From the NCBI GenBank assembly GCA_036520995.1, contig DATDIQ010000025.1:42149-106148 (forward strand): a DNA stretch of 64,000 nt, given 5' to 3'. Source of the stretch: Terracidiphilus sp. GTDB lineage: Bacteria > Acidobacteriota > Terriglobia > Terriglobales > Acidobacteriaceae. The notes under the pieces are model-generated. The model was not told the origin of the DNA, ran no database searches, and was given only the letters and a program-made list of their open reading frames with translations. Below are positions 3,217 to 31,713 of this stretch, piece by piece. The position numbers were made by a program, and so were the translations under genes. Every line of letters starts with the position of its first letter. Within the stretch, counting starts at the first letter, position 1.

Positions 3217-3624
3217 TTATTTCTTCGCCTGGGCGGTGCCATTCTGATGTCCTTCAGCTTCAGCAGCCTTACTCTTATCTGCTTCATGATGAAGGGCTTG
3301 TGCGATCATCTTGCCGATCCCGATGCCCCCGGTCGCCGCCAAACCGCCGGCCAGCGACTGAACCCCCAGGCTCATCATTTGGTCCCGCCCGGCCGCATCT
3401 TCGTCGTCTTCCGCCCCCGGCACGGTGGCCATCGACTGCTCCGCCTGCTGCAGCCAGTTGCTCAGCAGCATCGACTCAAACTCCGTGGCGCTCTTCTCAA
3501 TCTTCCCGTCGTTGCCCGACGCCTGCTGCCCTTGCAGCTGCCGGAGCATCCGGCTCTCCTGCGATTGCAGAAGATTCGACTGCGCCTGCGCCATCATCGA
3601 TCCCGAAACTATGCCCGATCCCAC
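3217..3624 (-). CDS. flgJ: rod-binding protein (single-domain FlgJ, no muramidase domain)
   Basis: 135 aa with the rod-binding motif ATEFESMLLSNWLQQAEQS. GTG start at 3624 overlaps the flgI stop by 1 nt. Confidence 0.7.
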   Translation of the reverse strand: MGSGIVSGSMMAQAQSNLLQSQESRMLRQLQGQQASGNDGKIEKSATEFESMLLSNWLQQAEQSMATVPGAEDDEDAAGRDQMMSLGVQSLAGGLAATGGIGIGKMIAQALHHEADKSKAAEAEGHQNGTAQAKK

Positions 3625-4925
3625 TACTGCACCTCCACTTCGGCCTGGATGCCGCCTTCCGCCTTGATGGCCTCGAGAATCGCCACCACATCGTGCGCCG
3701 TCGTCCCGATCGCATGCAGCCCGTTCACCAGCTCTTCCACGTTGGCGCCGTCATCCAGCCGCATGGTCTGCGTCGGCGAGTCATTGACCGTCACGCTCTG
3801 CTCGGGAACCAGCGCTGCCGTCGGATTCGCGACGAAGCTGCGATCCTCGCGGCGAGCTCCGCCATCCTCGGCCTGAGCCCGTTCCCCACCAGTCCCGCCC
3901 GTCTCCCGCGCTCCGCCGCCGCTCCCTGCATTCCCTCGCCCGCCGCGGCCCTCTGAAGTGCTCGATCCCTGCATACCGCCCAGCGGCAGCACGTTGTACG
4001 ACGTCACCACCTGGATGGAAAGATTGCCGTGAATCACTGAGACCGGGGTCAGCTTCACATCGCCGCCCAGCACGATCGTTCCCGTCCGCTCGTTGATCAC
4101 GATCTTGGCCGGCGTATTCACCGTGAGCGCCAGGTTCTGCAACCGGGAAATCAGCACCGGCACCGAATCCGCGCCCGCATCCGCCACGTTGACATCGACG
4201 CGCGTGCTGTCCACGAGCAACGCCACAGTCTTATGAAACTCCTGGTTCACGGCGTCCGCAATCTCCCGCGCCGTCGTGAAATCCGGATTGCGCAGCAGCA
4301 GCGATACGGTCTTGAAATCGTGTAAGTCCACCGACACATCGCGTTCCACCATGCCGCCGTTGGGAATATTCCCGACCGTGGTCGAGTTCACTTCCTTGCC
4401 GTTTTGGCCATTGCCCGCGACATAGCCGCCCATCACCAGGGGCCCCTGCGCTTCGGCGTAGATCTTCCCATCGGGCCCGTGTAGTGCGCTCATCAGAAGC
4501 ACGCCGCCCACCAGGCTCTTGGCGTCGCCTACCGACGACACCGTCACATCCAGCTTCGATCCAGGACGCGCAAACGGAGGCAGTGAAGCCGTAATGAACA
4601 CTGCAGCCACGTTCTTCACCGTTACCTGCGAAGGAGAGGGCATCAGCACACCCATCTTCTGCATCGCATTCGCGAGCGTCTGCACCGTGAAGAATGTCTG
4701 CTGGCTATCGCCGGTCCGATTCAACCCCACCACCAGCCCATAGCCCACCAGCATGTTGCTGCGCACGCCTTCGACGCTGGTGATGTCCCGGATCAGCACG
4801 TGCCGGTTCGGATTATCCGCACCGGCATAGGGTGCCAGCGGCGCCAGCGCCAGCGTGCAGGCCAGCAAACGCGCCGTCTGCGCGCTGGGCCGAAGCTTCT
4901 TCAAGTCGAATACAAAACTCATCAT
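3624..4925 (-). CDS. flgI: flagellar P-ring protein FlgI (with a G/R/E-rich insertion)
   Basis: Strong FlgI similarity along the ORF (IRDITSVEGVRSNMLVGYGLVVGLNRTGD ... LHAIGTTAHDVVAILEAIKAEGGIQAEVEV). The ORF track starts at a TTG at 4943. ATG at 4925 (checked) overlaps the flgH stop as TGATG and precedes the signal peptide. Confidence 0.9.
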   Translation of the reverse strand: MMSFVFDLKKLRPSAQTARLLACTLALAPLAPYAGADNPNRHVLIRDITSVEGVRSNMLVGYGLVVGLNRTGDSQQTFFTVQTLANAMQKMGVLMPSPSQVTVKNVAAVFITASLPPFARPGSKLDVTVSSVGDAKSLVGGVLLMSALHGPDGKIYAEAQGPLVMGGYVAGNGQNGKEVNSTTVGNIPNGGMVERDVSVDLHDFKTVSLLLRNPDFTTAREIADAVNQEFHKTVALLVDSTRVDVNVADAGADSVPVLISRLQNLALTVNTPAKIVINERTGTIVLGGDVKLTPVSVIHGNLSIQVVTSYNVLPLGGMQGSSTSEGRGGRGNAGSGGGARETGGTGGERAQAEDGGARREDRSFVANPTAALVPEQSVTVNDSPTQTMRLDDGANVEELVNGLHAIGTTAHDVVAILEAIKAEGGIQAEVEVQ

Positions 4926-7774: not shown

Positions 7775-7790
7775 AGCACGGGGCATGCCA
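7775..7790 (-). promoter_or_regulatory. sigma54-type promoter upstream of flgF
   Basis: Minus strand reads TGGCATGCCCCGTGCT, with correct GG-N10-GC spacing. There are 24 nt between the -12 GC and the flgF ATG, including a GGGAGA Shine-Dalgarno. Confidence 0.55.
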
Positions 7791-8786: not shown

Positions 8787-9695
8787 TCAAGGCAAAACTG
8801 TGGAAGTCTCCTCGAAAATTTCTGGCTCCTTAAACCTTCCTTCTGCAGCACTTGCGTGCACCCGGAAGAGAACGTCCACCTTCCCCCGTTTTCCCATCAT
8901 CCGCGCCCACACATGGCTCTTGCAGGGGGCAATCTGCGCCTCCCGCGCTCCGATCTCCACCGCCATCCGACCCAAAGTCCGGGCCATCCTTTCAGGCGTC
9001 TCAGGCTCCTCGACCACCACTTCCTCGTACTCCGAAGGCACCGTGATCCGGGAGATCTGCTCCTCGCGGTCGGTAGGAGTGATGAAGCACGGCTCCACGC
9101 GGAAGCCGGTCATCTGCTCGATCGCTTCCAGAAGGCTGTGCTCCACCCGCGAAACAAAGCCAAGCAAAATTCGCCTCGCTGTCGCCGAGTAGTGCAGGGG
9201 CGCCGCCGAGCTGCTCCGTAACAGCGCCCGCGGAATATCCGAAAACACTAGCTGGCTGGTGAAATCCTGCGCAAACACCGGATAGCCCCACTGCGCCGAA
9301 CGCGCCGCCGCAATCTGCTTCTCGGTTGCCATGTTCATCTCCACCAGCGTCTCCGCCAGCTCATCCTCATCCATCTCGGAACGAACCGCGCCGCGGCGCA
9401 TGTCCTCGGCCGAGAGATATCCCTTCACATGCAGCGCCAGGCGCAGCGAAAGCCGCGGAAGCCGCGGGATCTCCGGCGCTCGACGGCTCGTCATCACCGC
9501 CAGCGGTGTGCGCATGGCCAACGCGAAGCAGTCGAAGCTGCAATACCACTGCGGTCCCACCTGCATGCCTGGCCGGCTGCCCGGAATGCTGCGCATCAGC
9601 TGCGTGTTATGGCACCCGTTGAAGTCGCATACGGCGCGCATGTTCTTCCATCCACGATCGACGGCGGGCAAAAACGACAGAAGCGACAAACTCAT
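8787..9695 (-). CDS. Cys4 zinc-ribbon + T2SSE_N (GspE-N/MshEN-fold) domain protein without an ATPase domain
   Basis: 302 aa, ATG at 9695 checked. N-terminal C-x4-C-x25-C-x3-C (YCSFDC, TRASH/FCS-like). The central region aligns by eye to PilB/GspE N-terminal domains (LAETLVEMNMATEKQIAAARSAQWGYPVF...RRILLGFVSRVEHSLLEAIEQMTGFRVEPCFITPTD). No Walker motifs. Confidence 0.6.
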   Translation of the reverse strand: MSLSLLSFLPAVDRGWKNMRAVCDFNGCHNTQLMRSIPGSRPGMQVGPQWYCSFDCFALAMRTPLAVMTSRRAPEIPRLPRLSLRLALHVKGYLSAEDMRRGAVRSEMDEDELAETLVEMNMATEKQIAAARSAQWGYPVFAQDFTSQLVFSDIPRALLRSSSAAPLHYSATARRILLGFVSRVEHSLLEAIEQMTGFRVEPCFITPTDREEQISRITVPSEYEEVVVEEPETPERMARTLGRMAVEIGAREAQIAPCKSHVWARMMGKRGKVDVLFRVHASAAEGRFKEPEIFEETSTVLP

Positions 9696-10526: not shown

Positions 10527-11483
10527 CTATCTCCTCTTCCAATCTGTCGACGAGACGCGGCGGCCGAGTTGCGCCGCACGCTGGGTTCCGTTGCGCACCG
10601 GGACGGCTTCGAACATCGAGCGTCCTCCTGCGGAAAGCATGCCGGGGTTGCGAATCGGCGCGCGCAGCTTGAGCACCGAACCGGGCCGCAGCGCAATCAA
10701 GTCCCGCACCGCAACGCGCAGGCCGGGCAGCTCCGACGACACCATGAAGTCGCAATCCAGAATGCGTTCGCGCAGCGGAGCCATGGGGAAGCTCCATACG
10801 CGCGTCTTCTTCTGCGGCTGATCGCTCTTGATCTGCGTCATCAGTCCATTCAAAAACTCCGCCGAAAACACCAGCTTGAATGCGCCCGAAATGCCGGCTA
10901 CTTCGATCACGAACTTCAGCACCGTCACCTTTTCGTTGGGCGTGAAACACTGGTGCATAAGGGCGGGCTTCAACCGCGACCCGGGAATCAGCGATAGCCC
11001 CGGTACGCGCCATACCGACTCTGCCTGGCGCACCAGCACCGTCATCACGCTCTGCATCACTTCTTCTTCGATCTCCGAAAGCTCGCGCGCTTCGCCAGTC
11101 TCCACACTCGTGCTGCCCATCAGCAGCTCGATGATCGGAAACACTAGATCCAGATCGAACTCCACTACCAGCGTGTTCGACGAAAAAGGCAGGATGTAGC
11201 TCATCGTCGGAATGCTGGCGATGTGCTCGCGAATGGGCAGCTGGTCGAGACTGTCGAGCTTTACTTCGAGCCCCGTCCCAACGTAAGTGTCGAGAGCGCC
11301 GGCCAGTTGCAGGGCAAACGTCTCGTGGATCGCCGTCAGCGCGCGCGCATCTTCATTCGACATGCGCCCCGCCGACCGGAAGTTGCAGGAGTGCACGGTG
11401 CGCTGCTTGACGACGGCCTTCGCCGCCGTATTGCTCTTCGCTGCCGCGGCGTCTGGATGATTCGTGCTAGGCGTGTTGCTCAA
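10527..11483 (-). CDS. fliM: flagellar motor switch protein FliM
   Basis: 318 aa with the FliM middle domain and a C-terminal SpoA-like domain. TTG start at 11483, and no in-frame extension is possible. Confidence 0.9.
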   Translation of the reverse strand: MSNTPSTNHPDAAAAKSNTAAKAVVKQRTVHSCNFRSAGRMSNEDARALTAIHETFALQLAGALDTYVGTGLEVKLDSLDQLPIREHIASIPTMSYILPFSSNTLVVEFDLDLVFPIIELLMGSTSVETGEARELSEIEEEVMQSVMTVLVRQAESVWRVPGLSLIPGSRLKPALMHQCFTPNEKVTVLKFVIEVAGISGAFKLVFSAEFLNGLMTQIKSDQPQKKTRVWSFPMAPLRERILDCDFMVSSELPGLRVAVRDLIALRPGSVLKLRAPIRNPGMLSAGGRSMFEAVPVRNGTQRAAQLGRRVSSTDWKRR

Positions 11484-12267
11484 GTTGTCCTCCCGCGGCC
11501 CGCATCGTGGAGGCCGAGTTCCGCTGCAGATGTTCGAGCGAGGCCTTCAGCTTGACCATGATTTCCTGGCGGATCTGTGAAACCCGCGACAGCGCCACGC
11601 CCACTACCTTGGCGATTTCCTTCATGGTGAGCTCCTCGCGATAGTAGAGCGACAGAATCAGCTGCTCGCGCTGCGACAGCTTGGCGACGGCCTCGGCAAG
11701 GTGCGCCTTCATTTCGCCTTCCAGGCACAGTTCGAAGGGATTCAGCTCGTCGAGATCGGGAGCCGATTCGATCACATCCAGCGAATCTCCTTGATCGTTC
11801 GCGACTGCGACCTTCTGCCCCGTGATTTGCAACGAATCGAGTTGGGCAATCAGTTTCCGCAGATGCTCCGGCTCGATCTGCATCTCCTGCGCAATCTCTG
11901 CTTCTGACGGATGGCGTCCCAGCTTGCCTTCGAGGCGCGCCGTCACTTCTGCGATCTCGCGGCCTCGGCGCCGCATGTAGCGCGAGCCCCAGTCAGTCTC
12001 CCGCAGGCTGTCGAGAATCGCCCCGCGAATGCGGAACTTCGCGAAGGTCTTGAACTGCACGTTCTTCGACCCGTCAAAGCTGCGCGTCGCTTCCAACAGA
12101 CCCACAACGCCCGCGCTCACCAGGTCCTCCATCTCCACGTGCTGCGGCAAACGCTCGCGGATGCGCGCGGCAATGTAGTAGACCTGCGGCAGCTCCTGCA
12201 TCACCAGGTCGTCCCCGTCAGCCGCGTTCGTTGCGCTCGTCTTGTAGGCCAGTTCCGCTGCGGTCAT
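11467..12267 (-). CDS. fliA: flagellar sigma factor FliA (sigma28)
   Basis: 266 aa with sigma70 regions 2, 3 and 4 (DLVSAGVVGLLEA; RELTMKEIAKVVGVALSRVSQI). ATG at 12267 checked, with an AAGGAGGTG Shine-Dalgarno. Confidence 0.9.
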   Translation of the reverse strand: MTAAELAYKTSATNAADGDDLVMQELPQVYYIAARIRERLPQHVEMEDLVSAGVVGLLEATRSFDGSKNVQFKTFAKFRIRGAILDSLRETDWGSRYMRRRGREIAEVTARLEGKLGRHPSEAEIAQEMQIEPEHLRKLIAQLDSLQITGQKVAVANDQGDSLDVIESAPDLDELNPFELCLEGEMKAHLAEAVAKLSQREQLILSLYYREELTMKEIAKVVGVALSRVSQIRQEIMVKLKASLEHLQRNSASTMRAAGGQLEQHA

Positions 12268-12304
12268 GGCGTCACCTCCTTTGCTGCCTTCACATCCTGC
12301 ATCT

Positions 12305-14383
12305 TCATCGCACCGATCCGAGCGACATCACCTGCGTCATCGGAGGAATCTCCGAGGGCGAAATCACTACAATCTTGGGAATAAACGGCTCCAGAACGCG
12401 CCGCAGATAGAACCTGCCCGGCGACGCGCACAACAGCACCGGCGGCGCAATCGCGATCTGGTCGCCCAGCATCCCGCGCAATCCTTCCAGCACGCGGCGC
12501 GCCACCGAAATCTGCATCGCTCCGCCAACCACCATCTGCGCATTCTGCTGCGTCGAGCGCGCGCACTCTTCTTCGATGGAGCTGTCGAGCGTGACCACTT
12601 TCAACCGCCCGTTTTCATCCAGGAGTGGCCGGATCAGCGCGCGGCCCAGCGCGTGCCGCGCGGCTTCCACCAGCATCACCGGGTTCTTGTTCGTGGCGGC
12701 GGTCTCCACCATGGTTTCGAGAATCGTGCCCAGGTCGCGAATCGAAACCTGCTCGCGCAACAGCTGCTGCAGTACCTTCTGCACTTCGCCCAATGTCATC
12801 AGCTTCGGAATCAGCTCATCCACAAGCTTCGGGTGCGAATCGGACAGCCGGTCCACAAGGCGCTTGGTCTCATGCCGCGTCAACAGATCATGCGCATTCT
12901 GCTTAATCAATTCGGTCAGGTGCGCCGCCAGTACCGCCGTGTGATCGACCACGGCATAACCCGCGGCAATCGCCTGCGCCTGCAGATCCGGCGTGATCCA
13001 CTTGGCCGGCGAATCGAAGGCCGGCTCGCGCGTTTCCTGCCCCTGCAAATCGCCGGGCTTGGGATTCGAGTTCACAGCGAGCAGTCGATCGCGCCGCATC
13101 TCCCAGCGCGCAATCTCCACGCCGCGCAGATATACGACATACTCGCGCTCCTTGAGAGATAGGTTGTCGGTGATGTGAATCGACGGAACCAGGAAGCCCA
13201 GCGTCTGCGCCAGATTCTTGCGCAGCGATTTGACCCGCGCCAGCAGCTGGCCGCCCTGTTTCACATCCACCAGCGGCACCAGTCCGACACCGACTTCGAG
13301 CATCAGGTCGTCCAGCTTCAGCGCGGCATCCAGCGGATCGAGCGCCGGCGCGCCTGGCTTGTCGCCCTTGCCCGCTACGCCTTTGGCGCCCTGTGCTGCG
13401 TCGGCTGCGGCCGGCTTCATCTTCCACGCCACGAACATCGCGGCTCCGCCCAGCGCGACGAACGAGACCTTCGGCATTCCCGGAATCAGCGCCAGCGAGA
13501 GCAGGCATCCGCTCACAATCCACAGCGGGCGCGAAGTCTTGAACATCTGCCTGCCGATGTCGGAACCCAGCGAGTGATCCGATGCCGCGCGCGTCACCAC
13601 GATGCCGCCGGCTACCGAAACCAGCAGCGAGGGAATGATCGCTACCAGGCCGTCGCCGACCGTGAGTATTGTGTAGGTCTTCAGCGCGGTTTGAAACGGA
13701 ACGCCCTGCTGGAAGACGCCAATCAGGAACCCCGCAATAATATTGATCGCCGTAATCAGAATCGTGGCCAGCGAATCGCGCTGGCTGAAGCGTGCCGCAC
13801 CGTCCATCGATCCGCAGAACTCGGCCTCGCGCGCCACGGCCTCGCGGCGCTGCCGTGCCTGGTCGGCGTTGATCAGACCGGTGTTCAGGTCCGAGTCGAT
13901 GGCCATCTGCTTGCCCGGCATCGCATCGAGGGTGAAGCGCGCCGTCACTTCCGCGGTGCGCACCGCACCGTGACTCACCACGAGGTATTGAATCGCGATC
14001 AACGCCAGAAAGATCACGAAGCCCACAATGTAGTTGCCGCCGACCACAAACTGGCCGAACGCTTCAATCACTTTGCCGGCCGCCGACGATCCTTCGCTGC
14101 CATGCAGCAGGATGCGCCGCGTCGCTGCCAGGTCAAGCGAGAGCCGCATCAGCGTCAGCAGCAGGATCATGCTGGGGAAGACCGAGAACTCGACCGGCCG
14201 CAGCACCTGGATCGCGGTCAGCAACACCAGCACCGAAGCCGTGATGTTCAGCGTGAGCAGCAGATCGAGCGCGATGCTCGGCATGGGAACCAGCATCACG
14301 AACACCAGGGCAACTGCAGCGGTGGGAATCACCCACTCGGAGTATTTGCGAAGGGTTGTCATCAATCCGGACTTCTCGTTCAC
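12305..14383 (-). CDS. flhA: flagellar export gate protein FlhA
   Basis: 692 aa with unmistakable FlhA conservation across the TM and cytoplasmic domains. GTG start overlaps the flhB stop. Confidence 0.97.
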   Translation of the reverse strand: MNEKSGLMTTLRKYSEWVIPTAAVALVFVMLVPMPSIALDLLLTLNITASVLVLLTAIQVLRPVEFSVFPSMILLLTLMRLSLDLAATRRILLHGSEGSSAAGKVIEAFGQFVVGGNYIVGFVIFLALIAIQYLVVSHGAVRTAEVTARFTLDAMPGKQMAIDSDLNTGLINADQARQRREAVAREAEFCGSMDGAARFSQRDSLATILITAINIIAGFLIGVFQQGVPFQTALKTYTILTVGDGLVAIIPSLLVSVAGGIVVTRAASDHSLGSDIGRQMFKTSRPLWIVSGCLLSLALIPGMPKVSFVALGGAAMFVAWKMKPAAADAAQGAKGVAGKGDKPGAPALDPLDAALKLDDLMLEVGVGLVPLVDVKQGGQLLARVKSLRKNLAQTLGFLVPSIHITDNLSLKEREYVVYLRGVEIARWEMRRDRLLAVNSNPKPGDLQGQETREPAFDSPAKWITPDLQAQAIAAGYAVVDHTAVLAAHLTELIKQNAHDLLTRHETKRLVDRLSDSHPKLVDELIPKLMTLGEVQKVLQQLLREQVSIRDLGTILETMVETAATNKNPVMLVEAARHALGRALIRPLLDENGRLKVVTLDSSIEEECARSTQQNAQMVVGGAMQISVARRVLEGLRGMLGDQIAIAPPVLLCASPGRFYLRRVLEPFIPKIVVISPSEIPPMTQVMSLGSVR

Positions 14384-18236: not shown

Positions 18237-18331
18237 GGAGCCTCTCGCACGCTCCCTCTCGTACTGCGGGTCCTGGGCAGGGGTATACCGGCCCGGGATT
18301 CAAATGAGATGGAGCGATGCGTAGAGGTAAA

Positions 18332-18347
18332 AGCAATTCCTGTGCCG
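18332..18347 (-). promoter_or_regulatory. sigma54-type promoter upstream of the fliN-fliOPQR-flhBA operon
   Basis: Minus strand reads CGGCACAGGAATTGCT, against the consensus TGGCACG-N4-TTGCW. About 85 nt upstream of the fliN start, with an AT-rich tract further upstream. Confidence 0.65.
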
Positions 18348-18570
18348 GAATCGCGGCCGACTGACGCGCCGTAAAAAAAGCGCCTGGTTCCGGCGTCATA
18401 TACAAGATTCAAAAAACTTTAAATAGAAACAAAAGTGCGCCCTCCCGCTCCCATGCCCGGTGAGATGGCCATGAGAGCCGGAGAGCTTCCACAGGCTTCT
18501 GCGCGCCGCCGCTTACGGCGCACAAAAGTCTCTAATCGTATTTTAAGAACTGCGACTGCTTTCTCTGCCG

Positions 18571-20392: not shown

Positions 20393-22063
20393 TTATGCCC
20401 TGATATCCAGCCGCGATCCGTCGATGGATGACGGCGTAATGCGCATCGCCGCCCTGCCCATCTCGATCGGAGCCGGCGTGTTGTCGACCGGCACCGTGGT
20501 CGCAAAACTTCTTTGATCGCGCGGCGACGACTGCCCGCGCTCTCCCGAGAAATTCATGCCGCTCTGGTTCACTTCGATCGTGGCGTGCAATCCCAGGTCG
20601 CTGCCAAACTTTGCCTGCATCGTGGGAATGTGCGCCGAGATCGCATTGCTCAATTCGCTGTGATCCACGGAAATCTGTGCCTGCACCTGCTGCTGCGAAA
20701 CCATCGTCCGGATTGAAATGTCGCCAAACTCACTGGAGTGCATCCCCACCCGCATCTCTGTCTCGCTCATCGACTGGATCACGCGCGCCGAGTTGATCGC
20801 CGCCCATGCGAGGGGGCCGGCGGCATTGGCCGCAGCGTCCGCGGGAAGATGTGCGGACTCGGCCGAAGCATGTGTTGCTGCATCTGCCGTCCCGCTCGAA
20901 GCCGCATGGTCTGGCGTAGCATTATGCGCGGCCACCATGGCCCCGAACGCGGTGGCCATCTGCACACCGCTGTCTGTTCCCTTGGCGCCGGCTACCTGCG
21001 ATGCGTCTACCTGCGTGTGCGCGGTGGAATCGCTGCCGGCCTGGCTGTTGTTCTTTGCCGTGGAACTCGAAGCATCCTGTGAGTTGTTCTTCGCGGTTCC
21101 CGTCACGCCTGTGGTCGTCGCCGCATTCGCAGACCCGATCTGCGTGCCGGCTTTCGCCGCAAAGGTCACTTCCGCGGTCTTGTATTGGCTCAGCTTGCTC
21201 GTGAACTGGCTTGCCGTCATGGCGCTGGGCGATATTGCTGCGGTCAGGAAAGTGCTGGCCGCATTCGCCGTCGCCGGTACCGCGAATCCCTGGTTGGAGA
21301 TTTGCGCGGTCGCCGGCGCCGAACCCTGTTGCGTATCGTTATTCCCGGCCGCGGAGTCCTGCGTCCTGGTTTGCAGAGTGTTCTGTGCAGCATCAAGAAA
21401 AGGATTGGGCAACACGGGCGCGGCATGCAAAACATCCTGCGCCGTCGCGGCCGTAGCTGTTTGCGAAGAGGTTTGCCCGGGCTGCTGCGCATTGGCGCGA
21501 TTGACCGCCTGCGCAGACTGCGTATCGGTTGCGTCCGCTGCCGCCAGTTTGTTACCGAGTTCCCGCAGTGAGCTTGTTGCCGCGATCAAAGTCGGAAGTG
21601 GTTCCACCGGAGCGGGGATCGGAACCGTCACGATCGGTGCCGCCTGGGTGCCGTTTGCCGGTGGGTTCGAAGAGGTCGCGGACGATTTGCCGTGAGCGCT
21701 CTGCGTGGTGTCTGAAGTTTTGCCCAAAGGCGTTGCGGGTTGCGTGGATGCCGTCGCGCCGGAAACAAGAGCCGTCAACGCATCCTCATCCTTGGTCAAC
21801 CAACTTTCGGTTGATGTGCTGGCGCCCATCGCGGCTTCGGAGGAACCCGTCGCCGAAGTCTCCTCCTCAGTGGTAGAGGGGTCTGAAGGGTTCGCCTGCG
21901 AGGACGACTGCTTCTGTGCGCCCGATGCATCGGCGGCCTGCACGCCGACTCCCACGCCATTCATCAGAATGTCGAGGAACGATACCGGCCCGCTCTTCGA
22001 ACTCGCGACCGGGTTCGCGGTCGTCTCGGTGTTGCTGGCTGCGGCTTTGGGCGTAATGCGCAC
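20393..22063 (-). CDS. fliK: hook-length control protein FliK
   Basis: 556 aa. Long A/S/T/Q-rich region, then a C-terminal FliK-type domain (MRVGMHSSEFGDISIRTMVSQQQVQAQISVDHSEL). Positioned upstream of flgD. GTG start. Confidence 0.75.
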   Translation of the reverse strand: MRITPKAAASNTETTANPVASSKSGPVSFLDILMNGVGVGVQAADASGAQKQSSSQANPSDPSTTEEETSATGSSEAAMGASTSTESWLTKDEDALTALVSGATASTQPATPLGKTSDTTQSAHGKSSATSSNPPANGTQAAPIVTVPIPAPVEPLPTLIAATSSLRELGNKLAAADATDTQSAQAVNRANAQQPGQTSSQTATAATAQDVLHAAPVLPNPFLDAAQNTLQTRTQDSAAGNNDTQQGSAPATAQISNQGFAVPATANAASTFLTAAISPSAMTASQFTSKLSQYKTAEVTFAAKAGTQIGSANAATTTGVTGTAKNNSQDASSSTAKNNSQAGSDSTAHTQVDASQVAGAKGTDSGVQMATAFGAMVAAHNATPDHAASSGTADAATHASAESAHLPADAAANAAGPLAWAAINSARVIQSMSETEMRVGMHSSEFGDISIRTMVSQQQVQAQISVDHSELSNAISAHIPTMQAKFGSDLGLHATIEVNQSGMNFSGERGQSSPRDQRSFATTVPVDNTPAPIEMGRAAMRITPSSIDGSRLDIRA

Positions 22064-22578
22064 GCCGTTCTAATTGCACGCACCGGTCCAGCATTGGCCT
22101 TTTGTTCCATCGCCGGCTTCCGCTCATTCAAAGGAGGTTAGAGTTTCACTGGAGCGCCCCGCGACTAGGCACGAACTGTACAGCAGGCAACGCTTGCCGG
22201 GAACACTAGGCAAACCCTGCCTACTTTGCACCATCCATACGCAGCTTCATCGCGCATGGGTGGGAAAGTACGAACCCAAACCAACCTTCGTTCTCCGAAT
22301 CCTGAATCAGCACAATCCTGGGTGCCCCCGGTCTCGCTTCTGAGACCGCGGGGATCGGAAGAAGCGGGGGCCTTCAGGTCCCGGAATCACGAATCAGATA
22401 AGCCAGCGAAACACCGATCATCCGCATTCGTCATCCCAAAAGGGGTACCCCCCCCATGGCTGCGCCCCACAATGTGTGCATACGCCCCAACGCGACAAAG
22501 CGCGCCCGCAGCGCGCATCGTAGCAGGATCTATCGATATTCTCAGCAAAATCGCCGCAACAAGCGTAGTGACCATCAC

Positions 22579-22734
22579 AATTGTTCCACGTGGAACAATT
22601 TGCCAGGCCCAGAAAATGTTCCACGTGGAACAATTTTGCGCGAAGCCGTCGCCTGGACGGCTAGTCCTGTTCCACGTGGAACAATTTTGCGCGAAGCCGT
22701 CGCCTGGACGGCCAGTCCTGTTCCACGTGGAACA
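22579..22734. repeat. array of four parS-type palindromes (TGTTCCACGTGGAACA), three of them on a 51-bp tandem unit
   Basis: Perfect 16-mers at 22582-22597, 22617-22632, 22668-22683 and 22719-22734. The first extends to the 22-bp palindrome AATTGTTCCACGTGGAACAATT. Units 22617-22667 and 22668-22718 are 50/51 identical. The motif matches B. subtilis parS TGTTCCACGTGAAACA at 15/16 positions. Confidence 0.7.
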
Positions 22735-22783
22735 ATTTTCGGACGCTCACGCTGCGCGAAGCCATTGCCTGAACGGCTTAGTC

Positions 22784-23224
22784 CTAGTTCCCGCGCTGGT
22801 GCCGGGAAGTAAAGATATCGTCGAGCTGCTTTTGTTGCGCGCGGACTTCTTCCTGCTCGTAGAGATCTTTCTGTTGGACCCGCATCTCGGTCAGCATTTT
22901 GCGGCCTTTGTGCGCATCCTGGTAGCGCTTGCGCTGCGCATCGCGCTGCTTTTGTGCCACCTGCAACGCCGCAAGCATCGCTTGCTTCTCTTCCAAGGCC
23001 GCGTTCAATTGTTCTTGAATTTCGCGCACTCGATAGGCTGGTATCGGCTGCTGCAGCTCTTTCTCGCGCGCTGCGGTCGCCTTCTCCATTTCCTCGGAGA
23101 GTTGCTCGATGCGCCGCTGCACGCGCGCGATCTCGAGCTCGACTCTTTGCAGCGCAAGTTCTTCGCGCCGCTCGATGCTTTCGCGGACACGAAGAACAGA
23201 AGCCAGAGTAAATCGGAATCCCAC
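22784..23224 (-). CDS. fliJ: flagellar export chaperone/stalk protein FliJ
   Basis: 146-aa coiled-coil protein (FTLASVLRVRESIERREELAL...) directly downstream of fliI. GTG start with a GAGG Shine-Dalgarno. Confidence 0.75.
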   Translation of the reverse strand: MGFRFTLASVLRVRESIERREELALQRVELEIARVQRRIEQLSEEMEKATAAREKELQQPIPAYRVREIQEQLNAALEEKQAMLAALQVAQKQRDAQRKRYQDAHKGRKMLTEMRVQQKDLYEQEEVRAQQKQLDDIFTSRHQRGN

Positions 23225-23260
23225 GGTGATGACCTCGCAGCCGCGCAGCGCGCGTTTCTT

Positions 23261-24568
23261 TTATCCCGGCAGAGCGACGAGCTGCTCTTCGGTTTGCGCG
23301 TAGCCTGAGAATTCGTCCGGCTTCTGGCGCAGAAACGTGTTGACCGCGGGCAGATGTTCGATGGCGCTGTCCAACACAGGGTCGGTAGTTTTCTGATAGG
23401 CGCCGATGCGAATCAAATCTTCGGAGCGATGGTAAGCCGCCATCATCATGCGAATGGCATTGGCCTTGGCCAAGTGCGACTCCGAAACCATGCTGTTCAT
23501 CAAACGGCTGATGCTATCGAGGATGGAGATGGGCGGATAGTGATTGCGAAAGGCGAGATTTCGATCGAGCACGATGTGCCCATCGAGCAGTGAGCGCACG
23601 GTATCGACGACCGGATCCTGTTGATCGTCGCCTTCCATCAGCACGGTATAGAACGCAGTAATGCTGCCTTGCGAAAAGTTTCCCGCGCGTTCCACGAGGC
23701 GCGCCAGCAGATTCAGCACCGACGGCGTGTAGCCCTTCGCGGTGGGAGGCTCGCCGGCTGCCAATCCAATTTCGCGCTGTGCCATGGCAAAACGTGTAAG
23801 CGAGTCGACGATGAGGAGAACATTTTTTCCCTGGCTCGCGAAATGTTCCGCGACCGCGGTTGCCGCGAGCGCAGCACGAATGCGCAGAAGAGGCGACTGA
23901 TCGGATGTCGATACAAGAACCACTGCACGCCGCAATCCTTCTTCGCCGAGAATTTCGAGAAACTCGCCGACTTCGCGGCCGCGCTCGCCAACCAGCGCCA
24001 GCACGGTCATGTCGGCCGCGGTGCCGCGCGCCATCATGCCAATCAGCGTGCTCTTGCCTACGCCGCTGCCGCCGAAGATGCCGAGACGCTGGCCGCGGCC
24101 GCAAGTGACGAACCCATCGATGGCGCGAATGCCGCAACTAAGCGGCTCGCGAATCGGCACACGATCGAGAGGCAGCGGCGCGGACCCATCCAGGGTCACC
24201 GAATGAACCGCACGATATTCACCTTTGCCGTCGAGAGCATTGCCCGCGGTGTCGATGACGCGTCCCAACATGCCGGGGCCGACGCGAATTGATGGACGCG
24301 CTCCCCAGGTGACAATCTGGTCGCCAAAGCGAACGCCTTGCGGCGGATCGGCGGCCATGGAAAGCATTGTCGATCCGCGGAAACCGATGATCTCGCCGGA
24401 GTAGCTTTTGCCGCCATGCCCGACCAGCTGGCAGGATTCGCCGACGGAACAAAATGGCCCGTCGGACTCAATGAGATTGCCGATGACCTGGTTGATCCGC
24501 CCACTCCAGCGCAGCGTGGAACCGACCTGCAGGTAATGGGAATACGGGGCGAGAAGAGGACGGCTCAT
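23261..24568 (-). CDS. fliI: flagellum-specific ATPase FliI
   Basis: 435 aa with Walker A GGSGVGKST and F1/T3SS ATPase conservation. ATGA overlap with fliH. Confidence 0.97.
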   Translation of the reverse strand: MSRPLLAPYSHYLQVGSTLRWSGRINQVIGNLIESDGPFCSVGESCQLVGHGGKSYSGEIIGFRGSTMLSMAADPPQGVRFGDQIVTWGARPSIRVGPGMLGRVIDTAGNALDGKGEYRAVHSVTLDGSAPLPLDRVPIREPLSCGIRAIDGFVTCGRGQRLGIFGGSGVGKSTLIGMMARGTAADMTVLALVGERGREVGEFLEILGEEGLRRAVVLVSTSDQSPLLRIRAALAATAVAEHFASQGKNVLLIVDSLTRFAMAQREIGLAAGEPPTAKGYTPSVLNLLARLVERAGNFSQGSITAFYTVLMEGDDQQDPVVDTVRSLLDGHIVLDRNLAFRNHYPPISILDSISRLMNSMVSESHLAKANAIRMMMAAYHRSEDLIRIGAYQKTTDPVLDSAIEHLPAVNTFLRQKPDEFSGYAQTEEQLVALPG

Positions 24569-25251
24569 TTATTGCCGGGCCTCATCGCAAGCAGGTCGAA
24601 GAAGCCTTGCTGCACTTCTTTCAACTGCGCATCGAGCCCGAAGTTCGCGGCGCCGAGCTCGGTTTCAAGCACGCAATCCTGATCGGTGAGTTGCGAGTCT
24701 TCGGCCACTTCTACACGCGTGTTGCCGGGGGTTGCGGCGAAATGTTTTCTCCAGGCCTCGGCTCGTCCGGGGCTCACACGCAGGGTAACACTGGAACCGT
24801 CGCGCATCTTCTCGACAGCAAGGCGCACCAGCGCGGCTACCAGCATGGGATCGACCTGCGCCTCGCGATGCAGAATCTTGGCGGCTATGGCGAGAGCGAG
24901 TTGCACGATCTCTCCTTCGACGCGCGCGTAGTAGTGGCTGCGTTCCGCTTCGAAACCCGCGATCAGCGAGGAGACGGGAGCGCGGAGAGCGAGAAGTTTC
25001 TGTTCGTATTCCTTGCGCAACCTCTGCTCCACTTCAAACGCGGCGTCGGCTCTCTCCTGCTCGATGCGCGCGGCAAGCTGCGCTTCAGAGGAGGTTGGCT
25101 CCTGCGAGTGATCCATCGACAGGTCGCCGGAGATAAAGGCGGGGTCGGCCTGCGCGGCGCCATCGCGCCCGCCGCGACTGGACATATCGCGATACTGAAG
25201 ACTGGCGATGGGGACCGGCAGGGCACCGCCGAAGTCTGTGCTAGAGGACAT
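24565..25251 (-). CDS. fliH: flagellar export protein FliH
   Basis: 228 aa with a charged coiled-coil followed by a FliH-type C-terminal domain. Between fliG and fliI. ATG checked. Confidence 0.75.
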   Translation of the reverse strand: MSSSTDFGGALPVPIASLQYRDMSSRGGRDGAAQADPAFISGDLSMDHSQEPTSSEAQLAARIEQERADAAFEVEQRLRKEYEQKLLALRAPVSSLIAGFEAERSHYYARVEGEIVQLALAIAAKILHREAQVDPMLVAALVRLAVEKMRDGSSVTLRVSPGRAEAWRKHFAATPGNTRVEVAEDSQLTDQDCVLETELGAANFGLDAQLKEVQQGFFDLLAMRPGNK

Positions 25252-26263
25252 ATTCGTCTTCTCCCTCGCTCTTCAGAACGATCTTTCCTTCCGCCTCGAG
25301 CTTGCGCGCAATCTGCACGATCTCGCTTTGCGCTTTGGCCACATCTTTGCCGCGCACGGGACCCATCATCTCGGAATCTTCTTTCATCATTTCGACGGCG
25401 CGGGAGGACATGGTGCGGAAGATGTGGGTCCTGAGATCCTCGCTGGCGCCTTTCAGGGCCACCATCAAAGTCTTCTTGTCGACCATGTTCATGAGCTCGC
25501 GGAGGTCAGGCTCGGGAACTTCGAGGAAGTTTTCGAAGGTGAACATCATGTCGCGAATGGTGATGGCGAGGTTCGGTTCTTCGGATTCAATTTTTTCGAG
25601 GATCTCGCGTGCCGCCGACGCCTCCAGGCGGTTCATAAGATCGGCAAGATTCTTGATGCCGGAATCGGCGCGCTTGTTCTGATCCGTGGCCGCGCCAAAG
25701 CGGCGATTCAACACGCGCGAAGCTTTCGCAGCCGCATCGGGAGAGAAGTGCTTCATGGTCGCCATGCGCTTGATGCAATCGGCGCGCACTTCAGGCTCCA
25801 GCTTCATCAACAACGACGATGCCTGTTTGGCATCGAGGTGGCCGAGGATGAGCGCCTTGGTTTGTGCGTGCTCCCCGGCAAGGAAACGGGCCAGCTGCTG
25901 CGGCTCCGTCTTTTTGAGCGTATCGACGCGGAAGGTTGTACTGTCTTCAGGATGCGTCAACCGCTGCACCATGGCCTTGGCGCCGTTTTCGCCAAAGGCT
26001 TTGACGAGGAGACGAATGGCCACGTCCCGGCCGCCCGAGGCGACATACTCGCGCTTGGCCATCATCTGGTGATACTCCTCAAGAACCTGCAATGTAGTTT
26101 CAACTGGAACATTCGCGAGGTTCGCCACTTCGCTGGAGATGCGCTCGACCTCGTCGCTAGTGAGGCTGCGCAGGATGGGCGCGGCCTCGTCTTCGCCGAG
26201 GAATGAAAGCAGAATGGCTGCCTTGCGTGCGCCGTTGGTTTGAGCCTGATCGACCGCACTCAT
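25241..26263 (-). CDS. fliG: flagellar motor switch protein FliG
   Basis: Canonical FliG (KAAILLSFLGEDEAAPIL...EDLRTHIFRTMSSRAVEMMKEDSE). ATG at 26263 (checked) forms an ATGA overlap with the fliF stop. Confidence 0.95.
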   Translation of the reverse strand: MSAVDQAQTNGARKAAILLSFLGEDEAAPILRSLTSDEVERISSEVANLANVPVETTLQVLEEYHQMMAKREYVASGGRDVAIRLLVKAFGENGAKAMVQRLTHPEDSTTFRVDTLKKTEPQQLARFLAGEHAQTKALILGHLDAKQASSLLMKLEPEVRADCIKRMATMKHFSPDAAAKASRVLNRRFGAATDQNKRADSGIKNLADLMNRLEASAAREILEKIESEEPNLAITIRDMMFTFENFLEVPEPDLRELMNMVDKKTLMVALKGASEDLRTHIFRTMSSRAVEMMKEDSEMMGPVRGKDVAKAQSEIVQIARKLEAEGKIVLKSEGEDEYVL

Positions 26264-27909
26264 GAGTGCCCCTCCCGCATCCATGCCTGCATGGCCCGCG
26301 CGGTATCCGCCGGTTTTTGACGCACAAGGTCAAACGTCTGTTCCTTGAGCTGAGCGGCGCGGAGAGCGGGGTTGACTGCTTCCGCTGCTCCGGCGGGAAG
26401 CGACGGCGCGGCACCGCCGGCCAGAGCGGCCTGCGTTCCCGGACCCAACTGACCCGGGCTGAGGGCGTGCTTCTGGATGGGCCGGATCACGAATAGATAC
26501 GCCATCATGAAGAGAGCGAGCAGAGAGAGCGGGCGCAGGAGCGATGAGTAGTCGGTGACCGTCTTCTGCACTTTCGTCGTCCAGGTCGGCGCAGGCAGAT
26601 CGACATCCTGCGACGCGTCTTCAAACGACATGTTCTGCACGCTGATGGTGTCTCCCCGCTTGGGATCGAAACCGATGGCGGCTTCGGCAAGCGTCTGTAT
26701 CTTGTTCAGCTCATCCGGCGTTCTCTTTTGCCGAGTATAGGTGGTCTTTCCGTTCTTGACAGTCTTGACGAGGGCGTCATCGATGAGCAGGGCGGCGGTG
26801 ACGCGATCGATGCGGCCTCCGGGCATGATGGTATGCACGATGGTCCGGTTCACGCCGTACTGCGCGTTCTCAGACTTCGAGGATTGCGACGTGCCCTGCG
26901 ACAGGGTGGGTGCGGCGGCCGTGGTGGAAGACGGTGCGGTGGCAGTCCCGGTTGTTGCGGCGCCCGCCGCGGGCTTTGTGTTCTTGGCAACGGGAATGTT
27001 GCTGGCCGTGCCCGGAACGCCAGAGGGAACAGCGCCGCCGGTGGCCTGGTCTTCAGTCTTCTGCTCGCTGAGCACAGCGCTCACCGAGGGGTCATATTTC
27101 TCCTGGCTCTCTTCGACGGAGCCCTGATCGTAATCGACGTGGACGCTGGCGCGGATGGCATTGGCGCCGACGACGGGCTCGAGGGTGCTGACCAATTGCT
27201 GCGTCAGGCGCGCTTCTTCACCCGCATCGTTGCCAGGCCCATCGTGACCCACGCCCAACGACAGATCGGTATCCGCATCGATGATCGATACATCTTCAGG
27301 CTTCAACTCGTCGACTGCGCCGGCGACGAGGCGGGCAATGGCCATCGCCGAGTCTCTAGAGAGGCCGTCTCGGCGCAGCTTGAGAATGACGGAGGCCTTG
27401 GCGCCGCGCTGGCGATCGAGGAAGACGGAATCGCTAGGCATGACGAGATGGACGCGAGCGCTCTCGACGTTGGAGAGGGTCTGGATGCTCCGCTCCAGTT
27501 CGCCTTCGAGGGCGCGCTGGTATGCCACCTTCTCATCGAATTCCGTTTGACCCCAGGTCATCTTGTCGAAGAGCTCGAAGCCCATGCGGCCGCTGTGCGG
27601 CTGGCCCTGCGATGCGGTCTGCATGCGCGCGGCATCGATCTTGTCGGCGGGAACGCTTACCGTTTTGCCGTCGGGGCTGATCTGGTTGGGAATGTTCTGC
27701 GCAGAAAGCTGGGTGGCGAGCGCCTGGGCATCCGACGGCTCCAGATCCTTGAAGAGAGGCTTGTAATCGGGCGTGTTGAGGAGCCGTGCGAAGAGGGTGA
27801 GCAGAAGAGCCGTGGCTGCTGCTCCGACGAGAAGAAACGCCTTCTGCCGGCCTGTCCGGGTTGCCCAAAAATGTTTCGCCTGATCGGCGACGTTGCTTGT
27901 GCCTGGCAT
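26260..27909 (-). CDS. fliF: flagellar MS-ring protein FliF
   Basis: 549 aa with N- and C-terminal TM segments and FliF/YscJ-type periplasmic domains. Confidence 0.95.
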   Translation of the reverse strand: MPGTSNVADQAKHFWATRTGRQKAFLLVGAAATALLLTLFARLLNTPDYKPLFKDLEPSDAQALATQLSAQNIPNQISPDGKTVSVPADKIDAARMQTASQGQPHSGRMGFELFDKMTWGQTEFDEKVAYQRALEGELERSIQTLSNVESARVHLVMPSDSVFLDRQRGAKASVILKLRRDGLSRDSAMAIARLVAGAVDELKPEDVSIIDADTDLSLGVGHDGPGNDAGEEARLTQQLVSTLEPVVGANAIRASVHVDYDQGSVEESQEKYDPSVSAVLSEQKTEDQATGGAVPSGVPGTASNIPVAKNTKPAAGAATTGTATAPSSTTAAAPTLSQGTSQSSKSENAQYGVNRTIVHTIMPGGRIDRVTAALLIDDALVKTVKNGKTTYTRQKRTPDELNKIQTLAEAAIGFDPKRGDTISVQNMSFEDASQDVDLPAPTWTTKVQKTVTDYSSLLRPLSLLALFMMAYLFVIRPIQKHALSPGQLGPGTQAALAGGAAPSLPAGAAEAVNPALRAAQLKEQTFDLVRQKPADTARAMQAWMREGHS

Positions 27910-31697: not shown

Positions 31698-31713
31698 AGC
31701 ACGACGTATGCCA
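31698..31713 (-). promoter_or_regulatory. sigma54-type promoter-like element upstream of the PAS kinase gene
   Basis: Minus strand reads TGGCATACGTCGTGCT, the same -24/-12 elements as the flgF element. Only 15 nt separate the -12 GC from the ATG, so the transcript would be nearly leaderless. This lowers confidence. Confidence 0.4.

Follow-up and report, generated by a model that had tools for sequence, protein, structure and literature searches.

The stretch analysed here, 64,000 nucleotides of contig DATDIQ010000025.1 from the Terracidiphilus sp. assembly GCA_036520995.1 (the window in what follows), carries between the flagellar genes fliJ and fliK a tight array of four perfect copies of the 16-mer TGTTCCACGTGGAACA, a form of the chromosomal centromere site parS. 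The identity of these copies with proven parS sites, their lack of dispersal and their position at an origin-type switch in GC skew make it probable, as far as sequence can tell, that the array is a genuine chromosomal centromere with three or four predicted high-affinity parS sites, of the ordinary origin-proximal type although in an unusual gene neighbourhood. This is in line with the initial annotation, which had proposed a centromere for the loading of ParB. The array spans 153 bp and is made up of the following elements:

22579-22600, no strand: parS site 1, with its core (22582-22597) in the perfect 22-bp palindrome AATTGTTCCACGTGGAACAATT
22617-22632, no strand: parS site 2, opening 51-bp unit 1 (22617-22667)
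22668-22683, no strand: parS site 3, opening 51-bp unit 2 (22668-22718)
22719-22734, no strand: parS site 4, opening a degenerate third unit (22719-22783, 61% identity) that ends at the fliJ stop codon
22644-22662, no strand: spacer hairpin AGCCGTC-GCCTG-GACGGCT, within the 35-bp spacer of the 51-bp unit

A motif scan found the four perfect sites at the starts given for them earlier (22582, 22617, 22668 and 22719), and the rest of the anatomy described in the initial annotation was likewise recovered: the first copy as a 22-bp palindrome, copies 2-4 on a 51-bp tandem unit with two units identical at 50 of 51 positions, a hairpin in the spacer itself, and a degenerate third spacer that runs into the end of fliJ, where it meets the stop codon at 22784-22786. 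Tandem Repeats Finder described the array as 2.4 copies of period 51 with 98% matches. The second copy of the spacer hairpin, at 22695-22713, has one A.C mismatch at the base of the stem, and a degenerate copy lies at 22760-22778; the decayed third spacer copy (22754-22777) carries 3 mismatches and an insertion of 13-14 bp. The spacer sequence was searched for and does not occur outside the array. On the minus strand, the final fliJ codons GGG AAC TAG together with the following GACTAAGCC resemble the repeat-unit junction GGAACA-GGACTAGCC, and these codons may be read as a parS half-site plus the start of a spacer. Because of this resemblance, the array seemingly grew outward from the end of fliJ.

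All four sites are 16-bp palindromes matching tGTTNCACGTGAAACa or TGTTCCACGTGGAACA, and all are identical at 16 of 16 positions to parS2 and parS3 of Pseudomonas aeruginosa (TGTTCCAC/GTGGAACA), which are perfect, experimentally proven sites with the highest affinity for ParB (Jecz et al. 2015, PMC4368675). Any single one of the origin-proximal sites parS1-parS4 of that organism is enough for segregation (PMC4368675). P. putida is listed with this 16-mer as well, and the 22 parS sites of Myxococcus xanthus, TGTTCCACGTGGAACG, are one base off the 16-mer of the array (PMC7022226). The earlier comparison with the B. subtilis site, a match of 15/16, understates the likeness: the identification as parS stands, the description as merely 15/16 does not. 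Within the window TGTTCCACGTGGAACA has no match besides the four array sites, even with up to 3 mismatches allowed; the chance expectation from shuffled sequence is 0.16, and none of 100 shuffles gave four copies. With up to 2 mismatches allowed, no further site was found in approximately 20 kb of flanking contigs of the same species. The palindrome thus occurs outside the array neither in about 84 kb of DNA of the species, where it is low in copy number and not dispersed, nor in 1.4 Mb of related loci, and in the DNA covered it does not behave as a dispersed palindrome of the repetitive extragenic palindromic (REP) kind.

The place of the array on the chromosome was estimated from GC skew. 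On the plus strand the first 17 kb or so have a negative skew, the values between 17 and 27 kb are near zero, and those between 27 and 64 kb are strongly positive; the cumulative minimum, as looked for at an oriC, falls at 23267. For skew at third codon positions, again read on the plus strand, nearly all genes left of the fliJ-fliK gap give a negative value and all genes right of fliJ a positive one, and the sign flips between fliJ (-0.20) and fliI (+0.17), which are on the same strand. Two-state likelihood fits gave a breakpoint at 23336 for third positions (support 23120-23933) and at 25396 for all G/C sites, and the bootstrap 95% range of the breakpoint was 23114-26910, so that the feature may be entered as:

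23114-26910, no strand: origin-type GC-skew switch interval, from the cumulative minimum, the third-position skew and the likelihood fit

The distance between this switch and the array is 0.4-4 kb. The arms of the switch extend over at least 32 kb to the left and at least 50 kb to the right irrespective of gene strand, and the signs persist 10 kb past both ends of the window, on the left including genes of the opposite strand (L086) and on the right in L213 and L216. Since genes of both strands have the same sign of skew, the signal reflects replication and not transcription. Leading strands are G-rich, and a plus strand in which C prevails on the left and G on the right therefore has the polarity of an origin, not of a terminus. 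Functional parS sites are known to lie origin-proximal (PMC7022226, PMC4368675), and the origin-type switch beside the array therefore suggests that the array is origin-proximal too and that its position is not ectopic. The initial annotation had regarded a centromere in the middle of flagellar operons as an oddity; this does not hold, as a switch 0.4-4 kb away puts the array on the origin side. As causes of the switch, an inversion or a misassembly were rejected, since the order fliI-fliJ-fliK-flgD is common to related loci and four independent assemblies contain the junction. Recombination with a donor of opposite replication orientation, leaving a long tract, is a less likely cause, and the coincidence with parS would then be accidental.

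Several observations weigh against a working, origin-proximal centromere at this place. Neither a ParA nor a ParB gene was found by Pfam in the window or in the 10 kb past either end, which bears out and extends the earlier statement that the 64 kb lack parAB, and the same search gave no DnaA domain. It covered the larger open reading frames (ORFs) of the window directly, and the small ORFs and 10-kb flanks through precomputed Pfam results on same-species contigs. The cognate ParB is thus only assumed, and the genome may hold a gidB-parA array elsewhere. A cluster of DnaA boxes (TTATCCACA-like) is missing from the 64 kb even under relaxed settings: three boxes with up to 1 mismatch are scattered over the window, and none falls between 17 and 28 kb. 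The same scan did find such clusters near parS in 10 of the 120 metagenome contigs among the matches listed (see below). The fliJ-fliK gap, at 58% G+C, has no AT-rich stretch that could serve as an unwinding element, so that of the features looked for in an oriC the skew minimum is present, and the DnaA-box cluster and the unwinding element are both absent. With no recognisable oriC and no dnaA, the term origin-proximal is drawn from the skew alone. Furthermore, the 80 related loci (fliI with 10 kb on each side) all lack a parS-like site when up to 1 mismatch is allowed, and the array could be a young one that does not yet, or not alone, work as the centromere. The difference between three and four sites among assemblies of the species, described below, could in part be a collapse in short-read assembly.

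The absence of an oriC of familiar make-up bears equally on the question of whether the origin itself is located here. The origin may be non-canonical and located at this place, or the skew may place it imprecisely. We consider it unlikely, judging from the letters of the DNA, that the origin lies inside the flagellar cluster, in or beside the fliJ-fliK insertion and with the centromere attached, in the absence of dnaA, parAB, a DnaA-box cluster and an AT-rich element. That the insertion marks or contains the origin, as a relocated, non-canonical ori-parS module, is in our estimate still somewhat less probable. Such a module would agree with the short distance between skew breakpoint and array and with the long consistent arms on both sides, and also with the gene order across the switch, which is ancestral and common to related loci and speaks against inversion or misassembly. 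The relatives have neither array nor switch (no skew switch was seen in the related fliI loci), and apart from the 720-bp gap no non-coding stretch of appreciable length adjoins the breakpoint. On the other hand, apart from the missing DnaA boxes and the G+C content of the gap, the part of the insertion outside parS consists largely of a repeat element, found twice in the metagenome contig L130, and of polymorphic sequence that looks neutral, and the skew resolves the switch only to a few kb. The other gap of interest, 18237-18570, was tried as an oriC because it holds, at 18398, the sole 40-mer of 80% AT in the 17-28 kb region; it was rejected, as it resembles a sigma-54 promoter region and carries a 15/16 match to such a promoter, CGGCACAGGAATTGCT. 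We found no paper on replication origins in Acidobacteriaceae.

The reading of the array as an origin-proximal centromere has to be seen in its gene context, in which two genes frame the gap:

22784-23224, minus strand: fliJ, last gene of the fliF-J string (PF02050)
20393-22063, minus strand: fliK, hook-length control (Pfam), first gene past the gap, followed by flgD and flgE

Pfam placed fliF, fliG, fliH, fliI and fliJ upstream of the gap and fliK, flgD and flgE downstream, all on the minus strand, and the non-coding gap between fliJ and fliK has the length reported earlier, 720 bp (22064-22783). In two assemblies gene calling left the gap empty, and the plus-strand ORFs 22226-23308 and 22456-22812 had no Pfam match. 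The description of the surroundings as a tightly coupled gene string is not supported, as many relatives have a likely regulatory boundary after fliJ; the closest relative on a large contig (L082) instead has a gap of only 36 bp. The nearest FliI relatives, at no more than 83% identity, are metagenome-assembled genomes (MAGs) of Acidobacteriaceae/Terriglobia, and the species itself, an uncultured soil bacterium, is represented by the NCBI MAGs GCA_049279575.1 and GCA_049696535.1 as well as by several assemblies from Logan.

Comparison with these relatives indicates that the array lies within an insertion. In the three closest relatives the fliJ-fliK gap measures 36-411 bp. At least 8 relatives (L007 at 11746-11790, L016, L044, L013, L015, L033, L009 and L082) have directly after fliJ a pair of inverted repeats, which is probably the site of a regulator, an enhancer-binding protein, for the fliK-flgDE unit. 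In the window this pair is found further away from fliJ, and a second element lies next to it:

22180-22229, minus strand: conserved inverted repeats upstream of fliK, TAGGCA-N4-5-TGCCTA and, after about 12 nt, GGCAA-N3-4-TTGCC
22228-22396, plus strand: structured element of about 170 nt, resembling REP elements or miniature inverted-repeat transposable elements (MITEs), 70-75% identical to L130:1622-1796

As the inverted repeats adjoin fliJ in the relatives and stand at 22180-22229 here, the DNA from 22230 to 22783 is a lineage-specific insertion, of about 555 bp, which holds both the parS array and the repeat element. A mobile element as its source was not supported, since blastn of the insertion, taken as 561 bp, gave no match in 72,556 plasmids or 50,697 phages. 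The element of about 170 nt forms hairpins that include CGGTCTC-gcttct-GAGACCG and GGGGCC-ttca-GGTCCC, and in one of its hairpins the window and L130 differ by a compensatory change from C-G to A-T. A covariance model built on it found a second copy in L130 (283-527, E=6e-17), and no other copy was seen in the window. With two copies in L130, a contig from a peat/permafrost metagenome, the element is probably a member of an acidobacterial REP/MITE-like family. It was also considered as a regular partner of parS, and this was dismissed because the covariance model matched L130 and none of the other 119 parS-bearing contigs listed; the element is unrelated to parS and does not belong to the centromere.

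The number of sites differs within the species. The window and L002 have four, L001 and L004 have three, the difference being exactly one 51-bp unit, and the contig L003 ends inside the array. Which unit is missing from L001 and L004 cannot be assigned, because the two units differ at a single base. This variation fits units that are still being gained and lost through slippage or unequal exchange. The polymorphisms between strains are concentrated in the part of the insertion outside parS, which suggests that this part evolves neutrally. In L001 a homopolymer at about 22445-22455 (minus-strand G8, plus-strand C8) has one base fewer, with a neighbouring T/G difference.

Lineage specificity and variable copy number are also what would be expected of a neutral amplified repeat, or of a site for some other protein, such as a ParB-like paralogue of the Noc/KorB type or a flagellar regulator, with no role in segregation. 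The presence of a repeat element in the same insertion and the lack of a ParB gene within reach point in the same direction. However, four perfect 16-mers of a proven parS sequence are unlikely to be kept unselected. The parS core next to the oldest, decayed spacer is still perfect, which suggests selection on the cores, and only a centromere would be expected to coincide with an origin-type skew switch. The sequences bound by Noc, KorB and similar paralogues differ from parS, which speaks against that variant of the explanation as well. We therefore hold a repeat or binding site without part in segregation to be very improbable.

If the array is a centromere, its mode of action would follow established ParABS biology. 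Dimers of ParB would bind each 16-bp palindrome, close into clamps dependent on cytidine triphosphate and slide over several kb, including the flanking fli, flg and flh genes; the resulting partition complex would be segregated by ParA and would probably load SMC. Several adjacent sites would give a higher rate of loading together with redundancy. The array itself, to judge by its anatomy, may have grown by tandem duplication of the 51-bp unit, that is parS plus the 35-bp hairpin spacer, inside the insertion. The near identity of two units beside a degenerate third, and the presence or absence of one unit among the assemblies, point to growth that is recent. The regulatory spacer between fliJ and fliK-flgDE presumably tolerates insertions, the same insertion also carrying the repeat element.

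Occupancy by ParB could dampen or block transcription across the gap, and the palindromes could also attenuate read-through. Such an effect on the neighbouring genes would, speculatively, be a by-product and not the purpose of the array. As the array is absent from the 80 related fliI loci and has either three or four sites, it is not a conserved part of flagellar regulation, and the built-in link between chromosome segregation and flagellar gene expression suggested earlier is unsupported speculation. We found no paper on parS in flagellar clusters.

An action mainly at the level of RNA or transcription would make the identity with parS incidental: the palindromes would set the fliF-J transcript apart from fliK-flgDE, be it as terminators, as attenuators or as stabilising hairpins. 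The array RNA is predicted to fold very strongly (-117 kcal/mol, z = -7.8), and in a lenient scan site 2, which has TTTTC after it on the minus strand, came out as a weak terminator-like hairpin. No sigma-54 promoter with up to 2 mismatches was found between the array and fliK, and read-through could thus matter for expression of the hook genes. Still, the stems are just 6 bp with 3 G-C pairs, site 2 is the only one of the four with a T-run on the transcribed strand and the only one to pass the terminator scan, and the spacer hairpins have no U-run. A terminator has no need of an exact 16-bp protein-binding consensus repeated four times, and the relatives do without the array in gaps of 36-411 bp. 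Taken as the main function we find this highly improbable, although a role of this kind could coexist with binding of ParB. Rfam gave no family at gathering score in the window, the gap yielding only meaningless weak matches of the palindromes to microRNAs; tRNAs were not found in the window, nor sigma-70 promoters in the region.

With respect to the arrangement of the sites, the array is less isolated than the initial annotation had supposed. A scan for contigs with two perfect sites 15-45 bp apart gave at least 120 metagenome contigs, and 21 of the 120 among the matches listed contain 3-6 sites in a tight cluster. Tandem-unit arrays also exist in L180 (39-bp units) and L203 (48-bp units), and in L146, L169 and L142 the array occupies the classic spacer gidB-[parS x3]-parA(-parB). 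The contig L130, probably acidobacterial, has a parS pair flanked by the genes of a hydrolase and an aldolase, without par genes in the vicinity, and this pair has the extended flank CACAATTGTTCCACGTGGAACAATTTG in common with parS site 1. In view of the tight arrays in the listed contigs and of L130, neither four sites in 153 bp nor parS without adjacent parAB is exceptional, and the claim that such density is unusual falls. The oddities attributed to the locus are thus largely accounted for by the skew switch and by the frequency of such arrays.

It is instructive to compare the array with known systems. With parS1-parS4 of P. aeruginosa it shares the identical 16-mer (parS2/parS3), the number of four sites near the origin (for the present array of predicted high affinity), the presumed redundancy of sites and a position among unrelated genes and not only beside parAB. 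It differs in that the sites of P. aeruginosa are spread over <16 kb, with parAB about 7 kb from oriC (PMC4368675), whereas here they fall within 153 bp on tandem units and have no parAB, dnaA or recognisable oriC within about 84 kb. The soil metagenome contigs L146, L169 and L142 likewise hold perfect TGTTCCACGTGGAACA sites, spaced at 36-76 bp within a single intergenic region, and L169 has an origin-type skew switch at its array, as is the case here; their arrays, however, are directly upstream of the partition operon, while the present one lies between flagellar operons with no par genes nearby. The Myxococcus cluster lies beside parAB. It is similar in that its near-perfect sites are clustered, come close to those of the array in sequence and belong to the origin region of a bacterium from soil, but it is larger (22 sites) and is not built of identical tandem units. 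In the F-plasmid centromere sopC a unit of 43 bp is repeated 12 times in tandem, and SopB binds the 16-bp inverted repeat that every unit contains. The array resembles sopC (compare PMC3597684) in its head-to-tail units of about 40-50 bp with one palindromic site for a ParB-family protein each, built by tandem duplication, but sopC has a different sequence and a plasmid ParB and adjoins sopAB, while the array is of the chromosomal parS type with 3-4 units.

As a centromere, the array would be ordinary, and it adds an acidobacterial case of a tandem-unit parS array that is apparently gaining and losing units, as judged from three versus four sites. It is the context that is notable, namely a clean origin-type switch, absent from relatives like the array itself, within a flagellar cluster of shared gene order and with no dnaA, parAB or DnaA-box cluster within reach. 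If the origin is indeed located here, this would be a rare natural case of an origin and a centromere repositioned into a conserved array of operons, or else a non-canonical oriC. Given the polarity of the switch, the approximately 50 kb of mostly minus-strand genes on its right run head-on to replication, and with an origin at this place fliF-J and the flagellar regulators would be among the genes replicated in this way. The locus would in that case be a test bed for the effects of ParB spreading and of head-on replication on a large and highly regulated set of operons.

In the window as a whole, flagellar and motility genes form one long region, after which come genes of aromatic catabolism and others. 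The blocks of this region are flgL, flgK through flgI, flgH, flgG, flgF; fliM, fliN, fliA; flhA, flhB, fliR, fliQ, fliP, fliO; flgE, flgD, fliK; and fliJ to fliE, flgC, flgB. Sigma-54 activators, a histidine kinase, two motAB pairs, a PilZ protein and a GGDEF-EAL protein are also encoded in it. The gene of sigma-28, fliA (11467-12267), directly follows flhA (region 11467-14383), and the MinD/ParA-like regulators of flagellar number, flhF and flhG, are present neither between flhA and fliA nor elsewhere in the window. A 302-residue ORF at 8787-9695 (minus strand), between the gene of an HDOD-domain protein and fliN, has no Pfam match and is a called gene in two other assemblies. In the metagenome contig L110 (40% G+C), approximately 20 near-perfect TTATCCACA DnaA boxes are packed into 350 bp (3549-3894), which is unusually dense, about 7 kb from a tandem parS pair. 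The near-perfect sigma-54 promoter match of the gap 18237-18570 is located at 18332-18347 on the minus strand, upstream of the fliN-fliOPQR-flhBA string, and the 80%-AT 40-mer just upstream of it (18398-18437) resembles a site for integration host factor. Weaker sigma-54-like matches occur upstream of flgF (7775-7790) and upstream of the histidine kinase gene (31698-31713).

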